64,000 nucleotides of DNA from Chlamydiota bacterium (lineage in GTDB: Bacteria > Auribacterota > JACPWU01). The stretch covers positions 20,621 through 84,620 of the forward strand of contig JACOUC010000034.1 of assembly GCA_016178055.1 (NCBI GenBank), given 5' to 3'. A model generated the notes under the pieces. The model was not told the origin of the DNA. It made no database searches and saw only the letters and a list, made by a program, of their open reading frames with translations. Shown here in pieces: positions 7,677 to 14,484 of the stretch (its first letter is position 1; every line of letters starts with the position of its first letter). A program made the translations under genes and the position numbers.

Positions 7677-7765
7677 CAAACCAAAATTTAAAATACTTCC
7701 CTTGCAAGGGTGCTAGAATATTTTTGAATTTTGATGTGTCATTTTGCATTTTGATTTTTGGATTC
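7645..7765. repeat. Family A palindromic MITE/REP-like element (copy A1)
   Basis: Left arm aaatcaaatatcaaaaatcaaaatgacaaaccaaaatttaaaat, unique centre, right arm attttgatgtgtcattttgcattttgatttttgg (inverted). Confidence 0.8.
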
Positions 7766-8609
7766 TAAATTAATTATGAAGCTAGGTAAATTTGAAATCT
7801 ATGTTATTTCTGACGGTCTCTTTCAATTGGATGGCGGGACGATGTTTGGCATTGTTCCTAAGGTGATTTGGTCTAAATTTCTTCAAGTTGATCAAAATAA
7901 CATGGCTTTATGGGGGACGCATTGCCTTTTGGTTGTTGTGAAAGGTAAAAAGATTTTAATTGAAACGGGAATTGGATCAAAGCTTGATTCCAAGAAAAAG
8001 AAAATTTATGGTCGATCAGATGATGGAGCTTTTTCACAAAATTTAAAGAAAGCAGGTTTTAGTTTTGAGGAGATTGATTTTGTCATTCCAACCCATTTAC
8101 ATATGGATCATGCAGGAGGCTTTACTTGTTTTGAAAATGGAAAATTAAAGACGCGGTTTTCAAAGGCCCGATACTTGATTCAGAAAAAAGAATGGGAGGC
8201 TGCGATTCATCCTACGCGTTTGAGTCGGGGATCGTATTGGGAGGAGAATTTTTTGCCTGTCTTGGATCATCATCAGGTAGAATGGCTTGATGGAGATATA
8301 GAGTTGTTGCAAGGTCTCGATATTATGCTGACGGGTGCCCATAGCCAAGGCCATCAGGCGATTAAAATTTTTTCAGAAGGGAAAACACTTTTTTGTGGTG
8401 GGGATCTTATCCCGAGCCGTTGGCATGTTCGCCAAACTTTTGTTTGTGCTTATGACCTTTGCCCGATGGAGGTGAGTGAATTAAAAACCAAGTGGTTAGA
8501 GAGGGCCTATCAGGAAGATTGGATTCTTCACTGGTACCATGATCCTGAAATGCCCTTTGGAAAAGTCAATAAAGAAGGGGAGAATTTTGTAGGAGACCTC
8601 CGAAAGTGA
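7758..8609 (+). CDS. MBL-fold metallo-hydrolase
   Basis: 283 aa; HLHMDHAGG (HxHxDH) zinc-binding motif. Confidence 0.7.
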   Translation: MDSKLIMKLGKFEIYVISDGLFQLDGGTMFGIVPKVIWSKFLQVDQNNMALWGTHCLLVVVKGKKILIETGIGSKLDSKKKKIYGRSDDGAFSQNLKKAGFSFEEIDFVIPTHLHMDHAGGFTCFENGKLKTRFSKARYLIQKKEWEAAIHPTRLSRGSYWEENFLPVLDHHQVEWLDGDIELLQGLDIMLTGAHSQGHQAIKIFSEGKTLFCGGDLIPSRWHVRQTFVCAYDLCPMEVSELKTKWLERAYQEDWILHWYHDPEMPFGKVNKEGENFVGDLRK

Positions 8610-8737: not shown

Positions 8738-8808
8738 AATGATTCGGAAAACGATTTTCTAACTCCGAAAGAAAAAATGACAAATGTACTTAAAGCTACA
8801 GAAAAATC

Positions 8809-8882
8809 CGGGAGTGACGGGGCTCGAACCCGCGACCTCTGCCGTGACAGGGCAGCGCTCTAGCCAATTGAGCTACACCCCC
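8809..8882 (-). tRNA. tRNA-Asp (anticodon GTC)
   Basis: Minus-strand cloverleaf: GGGGGTGTAGCTCAATTGGCTAGAGCGCTGCCCTGTCACGGCAGAGGTCGCGGGTTCGAGCCCCGTCACTCCCG; 7-bp acceptor stem, anticodon loop CTGTCAC, T-loop GGTTCGAGCC; CCA not encoded. Confidence 0.8.
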
Positions 8883-8887
8883 AACAT

Positions 8888-9018: not shown

Positions 9019-10254
9019 CTACATATTTTCTACAATCGCCTGACCAAATTCAGAGCATTTGAGAAGCTTAGCCCCTTCCATCTGGCGTTCTAAATCGTAG
9101 GTAACCCGCTTTTGAAGAAAGGTCTTGCGAAGTCCTTTCACCACTAAATCAGCTGCCTCTTGCCATCCCAAATATTCCAACATCATAACCCCAGAAAGAA
9201 TCAAAGAGCTAGGATTAATCTTATCCTGGCCTGCGTATTTGGGAGCTGTACCATGAGTCGCCTCAAAAACAGCAACTTCTTCTCCAATATTGGCACCCGG
9301 TCCAAGGCCCAATCCACCCACTTGGGCCAATAAGGCATCGGACATATAATCTCCATTCAAATTCGGAAGAGCAAGTACACTATAGTCAGAAGGCCTCAAC
9401 AAAACCTGTTGAAACATCGCATCAGCAATCACATCATTGATTAAGATTTTATCCTTAGGTCTTTTACCGCCAAAATTTTTTTCAATATCCTCATAGGTTA
9501 CTAATTCTCCTGAAAATTCCTGCCGAGCCAATTCATAACCCCATTCTCGAAAGGCCCCTTCCGTAAACTTCATAATGTTGCCCTTATGAACCATCGTCAC
9601 CGAAGATTTGTGGTGACGAATCGCATATTGAACGGCCATGCGAATTAAACGCTTGGAGCCCATGACGCTCATGGGTTTAACGCCAATACCAGAATCAGGA
9701 CGAATTTTACAACCCATCTCTTCATTCAGAAAACGGATCACTCTCTCTACTTCTTTGGACCCTTGCTTCCATTCAATCCCGGCATAAACATCTTCCGTAT
9801 TTTCTCGAAAAATCACCATGTCAACGAGTTCAGGTCTTTTAATCGGGGAAGGGACCCCTTCAAAATATCGAACGGGCCTCACACACGCAAAAAGATCTAA
9901 TTCTTGACGAAGCGTAACATTCAGACTACGAATTCCCCCTCCGACCGGAGTTGAAAGAGGCCCTTTAATCCCTACCCGAAATTCGCGAAGCGTCTGAAGC
10001 GTTTCTTCAGGAAGCCAATGATTCATTTTGCTCTTTGCCTTTTCACCGGCAAAAACTTCTAACCATTGAATCTCCCTTTTCCCGTCATAGGCCTTCTTCA
10101 CGGCAGCATCCCACACAGGTTGAGTTGCAGCCCAAATATCGGGTCCAACGCCATCGCCCTCAATGTAAGGAATAATCGGCTTAACGGGTACTTTTAATTT
10201 TCCTCCCTCTTTCACAATGGGAGAACCTTTTTCTAACACGTCATTTCGCATCAT
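9019..10254 (-). CDS. icd: NADP-dependent isocitrate dehydrogenase
   Basis: [44 protein letters not shown] near-identical to Icd core; true start taken at MMRNDV (the 22-codon upstream extension in the ORF track is translation of repeat A3). Confidence 0.85.
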
Positions 10255-10269
10255 CGAAACCCTCCGCCA

Positions 10270-10402
10270 AAAAATCCAAAATTCGAAAATCAAAATGCAA
10301 AATGACAAATCAAAATCCAAAAATTTCTAGTGCTATTGCAAAGGTAAAATTTTAAATTTTACAATGTCATTTTAGTTTTTGATTTTTGCATTTTGGATTT
10401 AA
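10270..10402. repeat. Family A palindromic element (copy A3) filling the entire icd/aminotransferase intergenic gap
   Basis: aaatccaaaattcgaaaatcaaaatgcaaaatgacaaatcaaaatccaaaaat .. acaatgtcattttagtttttgatttttgcattttggattt. Confidence 0.8.
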
Positions 10403-11580
10403 AAAAATTTCCTAAAGAAACTTTCAATCCTGTCCACACCCTTTTTAATATTTTCCATCGAAGTCGCATAGGAAAGACGGATATAATCATCCGCCCCAAA
10501 AGGTGCTCCTGGAACAACCGCCACATGGGCTTCTTCGAGCAAACGCTGAGAAAGTTTCGCTGAACCAATCCCATAGCGAGCCACATTCGGAAAAACATAA
10601 AACGCACCTTCAGGCTTTCGAACATGTACTTTGGGTATTTGGTTCAGCCGATCCACAATAGTGTCTCTTCTTTCTTGGAAGGCCTTAGCCATTTTCTTCA
10701 CACATTCATCCGTCCCTTTTAAAGCAGCAACCGCCGCCTTCTGAGAAATGGACGTTGGATTGGATGTGCTATGACTCTGCAAACGATTCATCGCACTTAC
10801 AATTTGACTGGGCCCGGCCAAATAACCGATACGCCAACCGGTCATGGAATAGGATTTTGAAACCCCATTCACCACCAAGGTTTGGTCCTTATTAAAATTA
10901 GCCAAACTCGTATGCTTCATTTCATCGTAAAGCAGCTCTGAATAAATTTCATCGGAAATAACATAAACTCCACCTGAAAATACAATCTTCGCAATCTCCT
11001 TTAATTCATCCTGGGTATAGGCAGATCCGGTTGGATTAGATGGGCTGTTCATGATAATGACTTTTGTCTTCCGACTCACAACCTTTTTAAGATTAACTGG
11101 ATTAATCTTAAAACCCTCTTCCTCCCGAGTTCTTAAAAAAACGGGCGTCGCATTGGCCAACCGTACCAGTTCAGGATAGGTCACCCAATAGGGAACAGGA
11201 ATAATCACCTCATCATCCTTATCGCACAAAGACAAAATCGCATTAAATAAGGAATGTTTCGCCCCGCAAGAAACAATAACGTTTTCGGGAGCATAGTCTA
11301 AATTCTGATCTTTCTTAAATTTTTCGCAAATGGCCTTCTTAAGCTCGAGCGTTCCCCCTGAAGGCGTATATTTTGTAAAACCTTCATCAATGGCCTTCTT
11401 CGCAAACTCCTTAATATGATCAGGAGTATCAAAATCCGGCTCTCCAGCCGCAAAACTCACCACATCCACACCTTGAGCTTTTAATTCCCCTGACCGAGCA
11501 TTGATCGCCAAAGTTTCAGACTCACTGATCGCCATCACGCGTTTAGCCAAAACGGTATGTGTTTTAAGAAGGGTATTCAT
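10399..11580 (-). CDS. pyridoxal-phosphate-dependent aminotransferase (aspartate/aromatic aminotransferase class I)
   Basis: 393 aa; SFAAGEPDFDTP..YTPSGG, NSPSNPTG, SKSYSMTGWRIGY (PLP lysine region). Confidence 0.8.
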   Translation of the reverse strand: MNTLLKTHTVLAKRVMAISESETLAINARSGELKAQGVDVVSFAAGEPDFDTPDHIKEFAKKAIDEGFTKYTPSGGTLELKKAICEKFKKDQNLDYAPENVIVSCGAKHSLFNAILSLCDKDDEVIIPVPYWVTYPELVRLANATPVFLRTREEEGFKINPVNLKKVVSRKTKVIIMNSPSNPTGSAYTQDELKEIAKIVFSGGVYVISDEIYSELLYDEMKHTSLANFNKDQTLVVNGVSKSYSMTGWRIGYLAGPSQIVSAMNRLQSHSTSNPTSISQKAAVAALKGTDECVKKMAKAFQERRDTIVDRLNQIPKVHVRKPEGAFYVFPNVARYGIGSAKLSQRLLEEAHVAVVPGAPFGADDYIRLSYATSMENIKKGVDRIESFFRKFF

Positions 11581-12803
11581 GACCTTACTCCCTCTAACAT
11601 TTTTCCACCTAGAAAACGCTCGACCATCGGTCGAATATCGTTTTCCGCAATTTTCACAATTTTAATCTCACGCTCAGCATTTTCGACCGAATCAGAGGCA
11701 TGGGCTGCATTCACCAAAATATTCTGTCCAAATTCTCTGCGAACCGTCGCAGGTGCAGCCTTATTCGGATCGGTTAATCCTAAAACCCCCCTGATCTTTT
11801 GAACAGCATCTTTTCCTTGATAGACCAAAGCCAAACATTTTTGTAAACCCGGTTCTTTTGTCTTTTCAGAATCCGTTATTTCTGATGGATCGGAACCCGT
11901 CATAAATTTCACAATTTTATCGAATTCATGAGAACCATGAAGCGGAGCAAGCTGGTTCGTCAAATGTTCCAAAATTTCATTTGGAATTTTAAAATCAAAT
12001 TTCTCTTGAAGCCCTGCTTGAACACGTTCTGCCACGCCCCCTTTTAATTTCTCTTGAAGAATCTTTTTAACCGGCCCATAAAATTCCATGGCTTGAGCCA
12101 CACTCATTTGAATGAGACGGGCCGAAATAATATAAAGTCCCGTCTTGGAGAACATATCAATAATATTGCCGACACGACTGGTCGGCCTTTGAAAATTTTC
12201 AGGCTTAATCAAAACCAACACCTTTTCCGGTTTCGTCCCCTTAGGATATTGGATGACATCCTCTAAAAGGCCCCCATCGGTATCAGAATATTTTGCCCAA
12301 AGCGAAAGTTGTTCGCTCGCCCCTTTTGGGTTCGGAATCACGAGAACGGCCGGTTCAAAATAACGAACCTTTCCCTCCTGATCGATCAAACAATCTCCAT
12401 AGGTATCTCGAATCGTCTCTCCACTGATCGAAAGAGAAGTAATATGCCCCACCACTTCATCGCGAATCTTTTGAACCGCATTCTCTCCGTAAAAAAGAAG
12501 CATAATCACCCTGCGCCGTTGACCCGTCTCGGGATCTGGAGAAAAATTATCAAGCACATATTGAGAAATCAAATCCCGAAGAACTTCCTTATGACGACCT
12601 ACCCGAATATCCACTTCATCCTGAACATCTTGATTTCGAAGAAGCGCTGCATATTCTTCAACCAATTTCTGACTGGGTGCAAACATCCGTACCGCCACCA
12701 ATTCCTGTTCTGCCCGAGCTAAAAGACGGGCAACGATCCCACCCGTACGAGATTTCAAAATGGTATACGGGGTCACCAAAACATATGCTAATTCTTTTGC
12801 CAT
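11577..12803 (-). CDS. tandem nucleoside-diphosphate-kinase-like domain protein (N-terminal degenerate NDK-like domain; C-terminal NDK domain with catalytic His, NAAHASDSVENAEREI)
   Basis: 408 aa; two segments with NDK fold signatures (LVTPYTILKSRTGGIVARLL.. and VLVLIKPENFQRPTSRVGNIIDMF..); only second retains N-x2-H-[GA]-SD. Confidence 0.5.
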   Translation of the reverse strand: MAKELAYVLVTPYTILKSRTGGIVARLLARAEQELVAVRMFAPSQKLVEEYAALLRNQDVQDEVDIRVGRHKEVLRDLISQYVLDNFSPDPETGQRRRVIMLLFYGENAVQKIRDEVVGHITSLSISGETIRDTYGDCLIDQEGKVRYFEPAVLVIPNPKGASEQLSLWAKYSDTDGGLLEDVIQYPKGTKPEKVLVLIKPENFQRPTSRVGNIIDMFSKTGLYIISARLIQMSVAQAMEFYGPVKKILQEKLKGGVAERVQAGLQEKFDFKIPNEILEHLTNQLAPLHGSHEFDKIVKFMTGSDPSEITDSEKTKEPGLQKCLALVYQGKDAVQKIRGVLGLTDPNKAAPATVRREFGQNILVNAAHASDSVENAEREIKIVKIAENDIRPMVERFLGGKMLEGVRS

Positions 12804-12852
12804 GAGAATAAAACTCCTTCTTAAATGGAATTGTGGAGGATTATATCAGTAA

Positions 12853-12880
12853 TGAAAATCAAAAATCAAATATCAAAAAT
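12853..12880. repeat. Family A half element (left arm only)
   Basis: aaaatcaaaaatcaaatatcaaaaatcaaaat without inverted partner. Confidence 0.5.
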
Positions 12881-13039
12881 CAAAATTGTGGAGTTTAATG
12901 AGATAGGACAAAAACTGAACAGACAAGCCTAAGGAAAAGGAGCGTACAGCCGCCAACAAAAAAGATGTGTTAATAAAACCTTACCAGCGGTTTAGTGCTG
13001 ACCGCTGTACGCATTGATTGAATGTCTTCGTTTTACCTT

Positions 13040-13183
13040 TTACTTCTTCCCAAGAATCTTAAACATCCCTGTATTACACGTTGGGCATTTTCCCTGCATC
13101 GCCCTTCGACCGTTTTTCATTTCTACTTCTTTTGCTGATACCATTTCTTTTTTTGCCTTACACTTCACACAATAGCCTTCCAT
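13040..13183 (-). CDS. small zinc-ribbon protein, DUF5679-like (47 aa), absent from supplied ORF track
   Basis: Own translation of minus strand: MEGYCVKCKAKKEMVSAKEVEMKNGRRAMQGKCPTCNTGMFKILGKK; CxxC..CxxC pattern with KNGR core typical of DUF5679. Confidence 0.5.
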   Translation of the reverse strand: MEGYCVKCKAKKEMVSAKEVEMKNGRRAMQGKCPTCNTGMFKILGKK

Positions 13184-13398: not shown

Positions 13399-14484
13399 TT
13401 AATTCCCAAATGAGATTCCGAGAGATCGACCCACCTTAATAAGGGGATGATCCAGTGGGACTTTTTTCAAATCTCCAATCGCTTGTTCGATGGGAATAGA
13501 CTCAATTTCATTTCCCTGAAGAGCAACCATTTTTCCAAAATCCCCCTTCACAATTAATTGGAGTGCCTCGTAGCCAAATCGGGTTGCCAAGATTCGGTCA
13601 AAGGCGGTTGGGGATCCCCCCCTTTGCAAATGGCCCAAAACTGTAAAACGAGATTCAAATCCTGTTTTCTTTTCTATTTTCTCTGAAAGAAGAGCTGAAA
13701 TCCCTCCCAGACGAATAGGATCAGGACTTCCCTTCACTTTCTGCTTAACAATCTGATGACCCCGAAAGGGATAAGCCCCTTCGGCAACGACCACGATGCT
13801 AAAATTTTTGCCCATTTTATGCCGCTCCTTGATCTTGCTAAAAACTTTTTTAAAATCAAATGGAATTTCAGGAATCAAAATAATATCCCCTCCTCCCGCC
13901 ATCCCTCCATAAAGAGCAATCCAACCCGCATAACGACCCATTACTTCTACAATCATCACGCGATGATGACTTTCTGCTGTGGTATGGATTCGATCCATCG
14001 CTTCTGTGACAATCGCTACAGCAGAATCAAAACCAAAAGTAAAATCCGTTCCCTTCAAATCATTGTCAATGGTTTTAGGAACGCCCACCATGTTAAAACC
14101 CATTTTCATGAGATGGGATGCAATACTTAAAGTTCCATCCCCTCCAATAGCGATGATGGCCTCCAATCCCAATTTTCTGTAATGACGGAGGGCTTGATTG
14201 GAAAGATCGCGATAAGTCAATTTCTGTTTTTTGAGAATAGGATATTTAAACGGGTTGGCTCGATTGGAAGTTCCAAGAATGGTCCCTCCTAGAGTCAAAA
14301 TTCCAGAAACATCCCAGCTTGAAAGAGGACGAAACCGATTTTCAACGAGGCCTGCATAGCCATCTTCAAAGCCATAGACCTCCATTCCAAAATCCTGAAT
14401 GGCGGTCTTTGTGATCACTCGAAGAACGGCATTCAAGCCAGGACAATCGCCTCCTCCTGTTAAAACACCGATTCTTTTTTTCAA
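13399..14484 (-). CDS. pfk: 6-phosphofructokinase
   Basis: 361 aa; GVLTGGGDCPGLNAV, IGGDGTLSIA, MGRYAGWIA motifs. Confidence 0.85.
   Translation of the reverse strand: MKKRIGVLTGGGDCPGLNAVLRVITKTAIQDFGMEVYGFEDGYAGLVENRFRPLSSWDVSGILTLGGTILGTSNRANPFKYPILKKQKLTYRDLSNQALRHYRKLGLEAIIAIGGDGTLSIASHLMKMGFNMVGVPKTIDNDLKGTDFTFGFDSAVAIVTEAMDRIHTTAESHHRVMIVEVMGRYAGWIALYGGMAGGGDIILIPEIPFDFKKVFSKIKERHKMGKNFSIVVVAEGAYPFRGHQIVKQKVKGSPDPIRLGGISALLSEKIEKKTGFESRFTVLGHLQRGGSPTAFDRILATRFGYEALQLIVKGDFGKMVALQGNEIESIPIEQAIGDLKKVPLDHPLIKVGRSLGISFGN

Follow-up and report, generated by a model that had tools for sequence, protein, structure and literature searches.

Nucleoside diphosphate kinase (NDK) is among the most uniform of enzymes, and its bacterial forms are single domains of about 140 aa. 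The window, i.e., the whole 64,000-nucleotide stretch of DNA analyzed here, carries a 408-aa open reading frame in which the original prediction saw two NDK-like domains, only the second of them catalytically intact. The locus thus raises the question of whether such a protein, hereafter the long NDK, works as an NDP kinase and what a dead domain would do within it. We propose that it is probably a working NDP kinase of an unusual but conserved design, with a built-in pseudo-enzyme partner.

The long NDK gene and its place in the NDK superfamily

The predicted position of the frame, 11577-12803, was exact. The gene (11577..12803) lies on the minus strand, as do all features given below with window coordinates, starts with an ATG at 12803 and ends with TGA after 408 codons; the plus-strand translation of the same interval contained many stops. 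In the alignment, the N-terminus matched that of its homologues residue for residue. Two NCBI entries, MBI1870385.1 and MBI3277408.1, are identical to it and labelled ‘nucleoside-diphosphate kinase [Chlamydiae bacterium]’, and an identical protein was also recovered from independent read sets.

Hundreds of full-length homologues, with 51–74% identity to the window protein, were detected, far beyond what chance would give, and an uninterrupted frame of 385–410 aa recurred across hundreds of independent assemblies, both halves being under strong purifying selection. These observations bear on the idea that the long frame is an artefact, i.e., either a pair of neighbouring ndk genes joined through a mistake in sequencing or assembly, or a pseudogene in decay. 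A frameshift or assembly artefact was ruled out by the homologues, the genome counts and the independent read sets, and the probability that we give to an artefact of any of these kinds is virtually nil.

The Pfam NDK model (PF00334) matched the whole protein in four stretches with 110.7 bits (cut-off 27), and the ferredoxin-like β-α-β-β-α-β core of the NDK fold was found in it. However, with 408 aa and two NDK-fold domains, it departs from the single domain of about 135–150 aa that characterizes canonical Ndk, and it fell below the cut-off of every one of the six NCBIfam NDK equivalog models listed (NF001908, NF011112 and others), the best being NF001908 with 104 bits (cut-off 155). These profile scores place the long NDK within the NDK superfamily PF00334 and outside the NCBIfam canonical Ndk equivalogs. 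No second, canonical ndk was found within the window, where tblastn with E. coli Ndk matched the long gene alone; likewise, the long gene was the sole match of this query across 84 related loci, none longer than 21 kb.

A degenerate and an intact NDK domain

The first domain (aa 1–176, 12276..12803) lacks the equivalents of the catalytic His, Lys12 and Asn115. When searched alone, the N-terminal half matched Pfam NDK weakly (22.9 bits, E 8e-5, under the cut-off of 27). The tandem description was to be abandoned if profile searches gave no NDK homology for this half, but a profile built from 15 N-halves retrieved only NDKs from the PDB at E < 0.04, the best match being colinear with an E of 3.7e-5. 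In line with this, a profile-to-profile comparison of the N- and C-halves by hhalign yielded 81% and an E of 1.2e-5.

Inspection of individual positions bore out the predicted loss of the catalytic His, as Leu154 occupies the His118 position. Thr11 stands at Lys12, Pro151 at Asn115 and Pro157 at Asp121. When checked against the set of catalytic residues, the N-domain showed T11, P151, L154, I156 and Q165 instead. There is no equivalent of Thr94, and a variable insertion is found where the base-stacking Phe60 region would be. Across 50 diverse family members, neither a His at the His118 position nor a Lys at the Lys12 position was found even once (0/50 each), Pro151 was kept in 48/50, and in the family alignment the N-half contained no invariant histidine anywhere.

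Despite being dead, the N-domain is far from featureless: about 37 positions were invariant among 21 sequences that are 53–73% identical overall, which suggests that it is under strong selection. These positions include three motifs. KSRTGG (aa 17–22, 12738..12755), specific to the N-domain of this family in the alignment and in the wider family, has K17, S18, R19, G21 and G22 invariant in the 21 members. GETIRDTYGD (aa 128–137, 12393..12422) corresponds to the Kpn-loop sequence ‘GTIRGDF’ of canonical NDKs, and its R132, equivalent to Arg105, was retained in 44/50 members. YFEPAVLVIP (aa 148–157, 12333..12362), whose YFEPAV part belongs to the invariant set, stands in place of the NxxHGSD active-site strand. 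A variable linker (aa 177–192, 12228..12275), modelled without regular secondary structure at 181–192, joins this domain to the second one.

This pattern could also be read in another way, namely that the N-domain still binds a nucleotide or phosphate ligand and acts as an allosteric sensor for the active domain. Besides R132, it keeps a Tyr (Y51) one position off the Tyr52 column in 38/50 members and an Arg88 equivalent (R114) in 23/50; R26, R39 and R98 add to the KSRTGG residues K17, S18, R19, G21 and G22 as further invariant basic or Gly positions, and invariance of this extent goes beyond the usual need of a purely structural role. However, the Phe60 region has been swapped for the variable insertion, the Lys12, Asn115 and Thr94 equivalents are gone, and the conserved residues could equally make a domain or oligomer interface. 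We therefore regard a ligand sensor as possible, if unlikely. Under the explanation that we prefer, the N-domain would be an ancient and strongly conserved copy of the NDK fold, a pseudo-enzyme in which no phosphohistidine could form; its role would most likely lie in assembly, stability or regulation, not in catalysis.

The second domain (aa 193–408, 11580..12227) gave 93.5 bits with Pfam NDK on its own, and residue alignment identified it as catalytically intact. Its catalytic and nucleotide-binding set is complete (K200, Y242, F294, R338, T344, R355, N365, H368, S370, D371 and E379), each of these residues being conserved in 42–49 of the 50 diverse members and the catalytic His in 48. The combination of two NDK-like domains with only the second one intact thus holds in the window protein and in 48/50 diverse relatives. 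The motif NAAHASDSVENAEREI covers aa 365–380 and begins with the expected NxxH(G)SD-type active site, NAAHASDS (aa 365–372, 11688..11711), in which the codon of the phospho-acceptor His368 lies at 11700–11702. Next to this His, the usual Gly119 is replaced by Ala in 46/50 members, giving HASD instead of the canonical HGSD.

As had been proposed, the catalytic domain is split. Residues 2–50 of NDKs in the PDB aligned with 193–243 of the long NDK, and residues 71–129 with 324–382. Compared with E. coli Ndk and human NME1/2, it contains 62 additional residues, distributed in stretches of 2 aa (206–207), 43 aa (248–290, 11934..12062) and 17 aa (304–320, 11844..11894). The 43-aa insertion follows the equivalent of Tyr52 and precedes that of Phe60, within the αA-α2 hairpin, which in canonical NDKs makes up one wall of the nucleotide cleft; the 17-aa insertion follows ‘FMTG’ and precedes strand β3. 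In the structural model, the region of the longer insertion was helical (243–252, 254–268 and 275–302) with a pLDDT of about 87–91, while confidence was lowest, with a pLDDT below 50, at both Kpn-loop regions (aa 122–134 and 361–366).

The C-domain thus has in common with canonical Ndk (EC 2.7.4.6, PF00334, about 140 aa) the fold and the equivalents of K12, Y52, F60, R88, T94, R105, N115, H118, S120 and E129, and phosphohistidine ping-pong chemistry should be common to both, whereas the long NDK differs by its extra degenerate N-terminal domain and by the 43- and 17-aa insertions. From this residue pattern we infer NDP kinase activity and a non-catalytic role for the dead domain. The C-domain would carry out ordinary ping-pong phosphotransfer via His368, using all the canonical residues that bind nucleotide and phosphate, and the N-domain would be packed on it as an in-built partner, much as the paired NDK domains are arranged in eukaryotic NME7; how the domains of the long NDK lie relative to each other was predicted from an alignment of 21 sequences. 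The 43-aa helical insertion would enlarge the αA-α2 hairpin and may be the likeliest seat of altered specificity or control. Owing to the Ala beside the catalytic His and the heavily remodelled cleft hairpin, the substrate range could differ from that of canonical Ndk. The equivalog scores under the NCBIfam cut-offs and the low model confidence at the two Kpn loops also weigh against this explanation.

Gene neighbourhood and the DUF5679 pairing

The NDK stop codon and the start of an aspartate-aminotransferase-like gene (10399..11580) overlap by 4 nt (ATGA, within GTC ATG A at 11577–11580), as the original prediction had noted. The best NCBIfam matches of this neighbour were aspartate aminotransferase models, all under their cut-offs. 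Third in the same-strand run is a gene for NADP-dependent isocitrate dehydrogenase (9019..10254; TIGR00183, 662 bits, cut-off 567). The proposed aminotransferase–NDK operon was therefore right as to adjacency but not as to order, since on the coding strand the NDK-like gene comes first, followed by the aminotransferase and the isocitrate dehydrogenase. The same order recurred in three related loci (L086, L087 and L088). As a family-wide feature, however, the operon had to be rejected: it is confined to the window's clade and absent in Verrucomicrobiota, Auribacterota and Planctomycetota.

Upstream of the NDK, on the same strand, lies a gene for a 47-aa DUF5679 zinc-ribbon protein (13040..13183), preceded by a GGGAGG ribosome-binding site and separated from the NDK start by 236 nt. 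Its product, with cysteines at positions 5, 8, 33 and 36 (CxxC...CxxC), matched Pfam PF18930 over profile positions 1–40 of 40 with 51 bits (cut-off 27). No NCBIfam model matched it, and a PDB search gave nothing significant, the best relevant match being the archaeal ribosomal protein aS34 (E 0.84). The spacer contains a terminator-like hairpin (12983..13002) and a promoter-like TTGATT-18-TATAAT with an upstream TG (12840..12869; 10/12 matches), which ends 37 nt before the NDK ATG. Both are consensus matches only and, because the counts of such sites in the region did not exceed those expected from shuffled controls, they are weak hints only. Rfam revealed no RNA element in the 595-bp gap upstream of the NDK; its only match in the window, a tRNA, lies elsewhere.

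A same-strand DUF5679 frame preceded the long NDK by 39–250 nt in 80/89 loci, and lay just upstream of it in 74 of the 79 assessable species-level reference genomes. This invites the explanation that the two genes form a module, rather than the NDK being a stand-alone enzyme, in which the dead domain or the inserted helices would offer the docking surface. In favor of it, the pairing covers both the window's clade and Verrucomicrobiota, even though their NDKs are only 51–56% identical and the outer genes differ, and DUF5679 (59–87% identity) is better conserved than the NDK. On the other hand, no pairing was detected in Planctomycetota, Chthoniobacter, one Auribacterota genome and a reduced 488-kb genome, and in the window 236 nt, with the terminator- and promoter-like sites, separate the two genes. 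Moreover, the loci are mostly of one phylum, so inherited gene order could account for much of the count. Close DUF5679 homologues of other lineages occur singly, without an NDK in the vicinity, which rules out DUF5679 as a general NDK partner. Taken together, we consider a two-gene module to be distinctly unlikely.

Family distribution and comparison with known systems

The long NDK was present in at least 598 species-level reference genomes, mainly of Verrucomicrobiota, and protein searches added Planctomycetota and an apparently eukaryotic branch. A ‘lineage-specific’ protein, as suggested originally, is thus an apt description at the level of the PVC superphylum plus a few outliers, but not at any narrower one. 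The two other suggestions made with it, a regulated NDK and a non-canonical nucleotide kinase, are speculative, the sequence speaking neither for nor against them. We define here this unnamed family, the PVC-type long NDK, by its length of about 385–410 aa and its hallmarks, i.e., KSRTGG, GETIRDTYGD and YFEPAV in the N-domain, and NAAHASDS together with a helical insertion after EFYGPV in the C-domain. The window protein has every hallmark motif.

The gene is retained on a 488.5-kb contig of about 1,785x coverage, the reduced genome mentioned above, among gap-pgk-tpi, ftsK, accBC, dnaN and priA; a planctomycete copy shares 16 nt with the 3′ end of dnaE. Within the explanation that we favor, a housekeeping role is likely, in view of the number of genomes, the retention in a reduced genome, the dnaE overlap and, in the window, the co-orientation with central-metabolism genes, although the long NDK could instead be a specialized second NDK.

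Fused or degenerate NDK domains are known mainly from eukaryotic ciliary proteins (NME5–9). NME7/FAP67, a group II NME with a DM10 domain and two tandem NDK domains, is a ciliary microtubule inner protein and a component of the γ-tubulin ring complex. Like NME7, the long NDK has two NDK-fold domains in tandem, whose mutual arrangement is fixed according to the predicted geometry. Nevertheless, it has no DM10 (Pfam, E up to 10) and opens directly with an NDK-like strand β1, its catalytic domain bears large insertions, and it is found in bacteria in a metabolic context; upon superposition, sequence identity was only 19–22%. In NME7, the A domain is active and autophosphorylates, while the B domain is inactive yet functionally required (PMC13256974), which sets a precedent for the design that we propose. 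The order is thus active A before inactive B, whereas in the long NDK the dead domain precedes the live one. Independent origins of the two tandems are likely.

Other comparisons were more distant. The C-terminal domain of XRP2 and NME5/6/8/9 comprise NDK-fold domains with lost or reduced activity, but these are eukaryotic and part of other domain architectures, and none is joined to an active NDK with insertions such as those described here. The NDK of Pyrobaculum aerophilum (PDB 1xqi, 182 aa) is, unlike the long NDK, a single domain. Within the PVC group, Waddlia chondrophila has two NDK-type sequences in one organism, Ndk1 and Ndk2. One has 143 aa, the other has 17.8 kDa and carries a signal peptide, and the kinase motifs are retained in both (PMC13318545). 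These ‘two ndk paralogs’ were rejected as a precedent, being separate, short canonical Ndks and not a fused dead/live tandem (PMC13318545). Our search of the literature on bacterial tandem or pseudo-NDK domains found nothing on a dead-plus-live NDK architecture, nor an enzyme assay for any member of the long NDK family.

The eukaryotic parallel also feeds the view that the long NDK is a specialized phosphotransfer protein, e.g., a protein histidine kinase or one that supplies a partner locally with NTP, whose insertions and dead domain recognize a target. Group II NMEs with extra or degenerate NDK domains have mostly non-metabolic roles (PMC13256974), the conserved 43-aa helical insertion sits in the nucleotide-cleft hairpin, and the protein falls under all the NCBIfam NDK equivalog cut-offs. 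This contrasts with the conservation of all nucleotide-binding residues, including the base-stacking Phe294, with the retention of the gene amid core genes of the 488-kb genome, with the planctomycete dnaE overlap and with the fact that the family as a whole has no conserved partner gene. Such a specialization therefore appears quite improbable.

A broader scenario would join several of these elements: in Verrucomicrobiota and related lineages, the NDK and DUF5679 would make up a conserved module of two components, and the dead domain would have persisted over hundreds of millions of years as a platform for docking or regulation, coupling local NTP supply to a process, probably a nucleic-acid-related one; the long form would have replaced canonical ndk in much of the PVC superphylum, and some microbial eukaryotes would later have received it as a protein targeted to an organelle. 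We consider this combination improbable as a whole.

As to the working kinase with a built-in pseudo-enzyme partner that we favor, its chemistry is almost certainly ordinary and the advance is therefore moderate, with no change of paradigm. Its interest lies in a stable dead-plus-live tandem with a remodelled active site, which much of the PVC superphylum uses, abundant Verrucomicrobiota of soil and freshwater among them, and which every database labels plainly as ‘nucleoside-diphosphate kinase’. For DUF5679, a very conserved zinc-ribbon protein, the pairing with the NDK provides a first contextual lead. The family offers a simple bacterial system in which to ask what a pseudo-NDK domain is for, and could show whether half-of-sites architectures alter NDK regulation or oligomerization.

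Two NDK-fold domains with one complete active site

The NDK-like gene is a single ORF on the minus strand (11577-12803, 408 aa in the ORF list) and encodes a two-domain NDK-fold protein in which only the second domain has a complete active site, a pattern conserved across the family. The plus strand of this interval contains many stops in that frame, and the start is secure because the N-terminus (MAKELAYVL...) lines up with those of homologues with no offset. A word-indexed search found an identical protein at NCBI (MBI1870385.1/MBI3277408.1), where the database name is already 'nucleoside-diphosphate kinase [Chlamydiae bacterium]'. An assembly artefact was excluded.

Compared with the Pfam NDK family (cut-off 27 bits), the whole protein scored 110.7 bits over four stretches and the C-half (aa 193-408) by itself 93.5 bits, while the N-half (aa 1-176) by itself reached 22.9 bits (E 8e-5), under the cut-off. 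A profile of 15 N-halves, employed against all PDB sequences, retrieved only NDKs at E < 0.04 (best 3.7e-5), with matches colinear with NDK residues 1-54 and 70-116. Further, the N-half profile matched the C-half profile in hhalign (81%, E 1.2e-5, 126 columns). Thus, profile searches place the N-half among NDKs rather than in another fold, in line with the tandem described in the original prediction. Solved NDKs aligned in two blocks (residues 2-50 to query 193-243 and residues 71-129 to query 324-382), and therefore the catalytic domain is interrupted by extra sequence, as had been proposed.

Both halves were also aligned to E. coli Ndk and human NME1/2 (NME1 numbering). The C-domain carries K200, Y242, R338, T344, R355, N365, H368, S370, D371 and E379 at the positions of Lys12, Tyr52, Arg88, Thr94, Arg105, Asn115, His118, Ser120, Asp121 and Glu129, respectively, with F294 one alignment column off Phe60; its sole deviation is A369 for Gly119, that is, HASD vs. 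HGSD. The N-domain carries R114 and R132 at Arg88 and Arg105, a variable insertion in place of Phe60, and Ala52 in the Tyr52 column, with Tyr51 adjacent. Its remaining positions are Thr11 (Lys12), Ile121 (Thr94), Pro151 (Asn115), Leu154 (His118), Val155 (Gly119), Ile156 (Ser120), Pro157 (Asp121) and Gln165 (Glu129). The earlier claim that only the second domain is catalytically intact is borne out by Leu154 and H368 at the His118 position. In the family alignment, no histidine is invariant at any position of the N-half and, judged from its residues, the N-domain cannot perform phosphohistidine chemistry.

The C-domain would work as a normal ping-pong NDP kinase through His368, and the chemistry of the protein is probably ordinary. 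The protein fell below every curated NDK equivalog cut-off. A specialised phosphotransfer role, which would be partly compatible with a kinase of this type, appears improbable.

Predicted structure and comparison with NME7

No solved structure of any family member was found in the PDB. The full-length model (pLDDT 81.5, pTM 0.83) was of low confidence only at 63-69 (a variable loop), in the Kpn-loop regions (122-134 and 361-366), at 203-206 and at the C-terminus. The top Foldseek matches in the PDB were NME7-type chains from ciliary doublet microtubules, aligned over approximately 390 columns; therefore, both domains superpose simultaneously, and their mutual arrangement is predicted to resemble that of NME7. 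In NME7, a DM10 domain is combined with two NDK domains: A, which autophosphorylates, and B, which is inactive yet functionally required (2026 review, PMC13256974). The long NDK shares this asymmetric tandem but lies outside the NME7 family: no DM10 domain was detected with Pfam, and its order is the reverse of the active A and inactive B of NME7.

The N-domain is probably a pseudo-enzyme partner that aids folding, oligomer assembly or regulation. That it senses a ligand, which is partly compatible with a partner role, is conceivable but doubtful. Full-text literature searches did not turn up any account of tandem or degenerate NDK domains in bacteria.

Extra residues occur in both domains, at 58-75, 86-96 and 142-150 in the first and as segments of 2 aa (206-207), 43 aa (248-290) and 17 aa (304-320) in the second. 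The 43-aa insertion sits between the Tyr52 and Phe60 equivalents, a region that forms the alphaA-alpha2 hairpin, one wall of the nucleotide cleft, in canonical NDKs. Structure prediction placed helices at 243-252, 254-268 and 275-302 with high confidence, and this helical insertion over the cleft may tune specificity or access.

Extent and conservation of the family

The word-indexed search returned more than 100 full-length relatives (360-448 aa, 53-74% identity). A HMMER search run exhaustively over 1.84 billion cluster representatives yielded 124 clusters at E <= 1e-30, with full-length members down to approximately 31% identity. When each species was represented by a single genome, at least 598 species-level genomes encoded the protein. 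Verrucomicrobiota (subdivision 3, Limisphaerales, Pedosphaera, Chthoniobacter) predominated among the 80 matches listed, and many Planctomycetota were gained when the search started from a divergent member. The closest species-level relative among the matches listed was an Auribacterota MAG (71%), labelled Candidatus Auribacterota, while the window MAG is a 'Chlamydiae bacterium' at NCBI. Likewise, several loci show typical Verrucomicrobiota-type gene pairs under the titles Bifidobacteriaceae, Pseudomonadales, Methylomirabilota or Sulfopaludibacter. Such inconsistencies, noted for L005 and in record titles of the species-level scan, are probably binning or labelling errors.

Conservation was tabulated in 50 diverse members. 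In the N-domain, neither His at the His118 position nor Lys at the Lys12 position occurred in any member (0/50 each), while Pro151 and R132 were present in 48 and 44. In the C-domain, His368 was found in 48, K200 and E379 in 49 each, N365 in 47 and Ala369 in 46. The dead-then-live pattern is therefore both ancient and stable, and conservation of the dead domain equals that of the live one, with approximately 37 invariant positions in 21 sequences, including the motifs KSRTGG, GETIRDTYGD and YFEPAV.

Several variants were observed. Four proteins of approximately 340 aa (P0198, P0201, P0214 and P0241) have a short N-domain without GETIRDTYGD...YFEPAV; among them, the protein of a Sphaerochaeta MAG shows the canonical HGSD sequence. 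In P0178, the C-domain is degenerate too and has Gln at the position of the catalytic His. P0229 and P0236 (1,420 and 1,513 aa) contain 10-12 NDK-like stretches, and one of the two, a protein of the chytrid Thoreauomyces humboldtii, carries the name thioredoxin domain-containing protein 3 (NME8-like). The search from a divergent member also gave a branch of 430-500 aa (P0173, P0176, P0185, P0228, P0405, P0415 and P0204) whose N-termini carry presequence-like or low-complexity extensions; three of its proteins are from EukProt transcriptomes. Its nearest bacterial relatives are Planctomycetota (38-43% identity), and it may stem from transfer of the gene into microbial eukaryotes, or from contamination.

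Genomic context and the DUF5679 neighbour

In coding-strand order, the run begins with a phosphofructokinase gene (13399-14484) and, after a 595-bp gap, the long NDK gene, followed by genes for an aspartate-aminotransferase-like protein (10399-11580) and NADP isocitrate dehydrogenase (9019-10254). A tRNA-Asp (GTC; 8808-8883, minus strand) lies directly downstream of these two on the same strand. The NDK stop and aminotransferase start share four bases (GTC ATG A, 11577-11580), confirming the predicted overlap; given the coding-strand gene order, however, the long NDK is 5' of the aminotransferase, the reverse of the order first proposed. The proposed housekeeping operon holds for the window and its close relatives (L086-L089), the only loci where the NDK-aminotransferase-isocitrate dehydrogenase run was found again, but not for other lineages: neighbours in Verrucomicrobiota, Auribacterota and Planctomycetota are unrelated.

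One family member, extremely AT-biased (I/N/K-rich), lies at L085 10001-11149 on a 488,505-bp contig of ~1,785x coverage (ctg35833_1785.54x_c, ENA ERZ28669879), among gap-pgk-tpi, ftsK, accBC, dnaN and priA. From its name, ending in '_c', this contig is tentatively a closed, circular genome of a reduced symbiont, which suggests that the gene is kept in a highly reduced genome. In the planctomycete locus L102 (4001-5203), it overlaps the dnaE 3' end by 16 nt. Both contexts point to a core function. No second NDK gene was detected in the window or within ~10 kb in 84 related loci, the area covered; in cultured Chlamydiota, one or more short ndk genes are reportedly always present (PMC13318545). 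An MBL-fold (Lactamase_B) gene follows the long NDK in all three planctomycete loci (L102, L104, L105), and a lactonase-like MBL-fold gene also occurs near the window cluster (7758-8609, plus strand) and at the edge of the related locus L001; this recurrence may be coincidence.

The 595-bp gap contains a 47-aa, unannotated-looking zinc-ribbon ORF of the DUF5679 family (13040-13183, minus strand; Pfam 51 bits, cut-off 27), with CxxC...CxxC spacing, a strong ribosome-binding site (GGGAGG) and the product MEGYCVKCKAKKEMVSAKEVEMKNGRRAMQGKCPTCNTGMFKILGKK. In 80 of 89 loci, the long NDK is preceded on the same strand, at a distance of 39-250 nt, by a DUF5679 ORF, and the pair occurs in 74 of the 79 assessable among 80 species-level reference genomes. 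DUF5679 copies are 59-87% identical to that of the window, above the identity of the NDK itself, and genes outside the pair differ between the window clade and Verrucomicrobiota. The pair is absent from Chthoniobacter, one Auribacterota genome, the reduced 488.5-kb genome and Planctomycetota, and other lineages have close DUF5679 homologues with no NDK neighbour. In the window, the spacer separating DUF5679 from the NDK gene contains a hairpin resembling a terminator (12983-13002) and a sequence resembling a promoter (12840-12869); the region has no more such sites than shuffled sequence. The literature mentions DUF5679 only incidentally, and neither structural nor NCBIfam searches gave a significant match. 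A functional link between both proteins is rather unlikely, as is a module formed by them, which would be partly compatible with a kinase carrying a pseudo-enzyme partner.

The long NDK family offers a tractable system in which to study pseudo-NDK domains, and its adjacency provides the first contextual lead for DUF5679.
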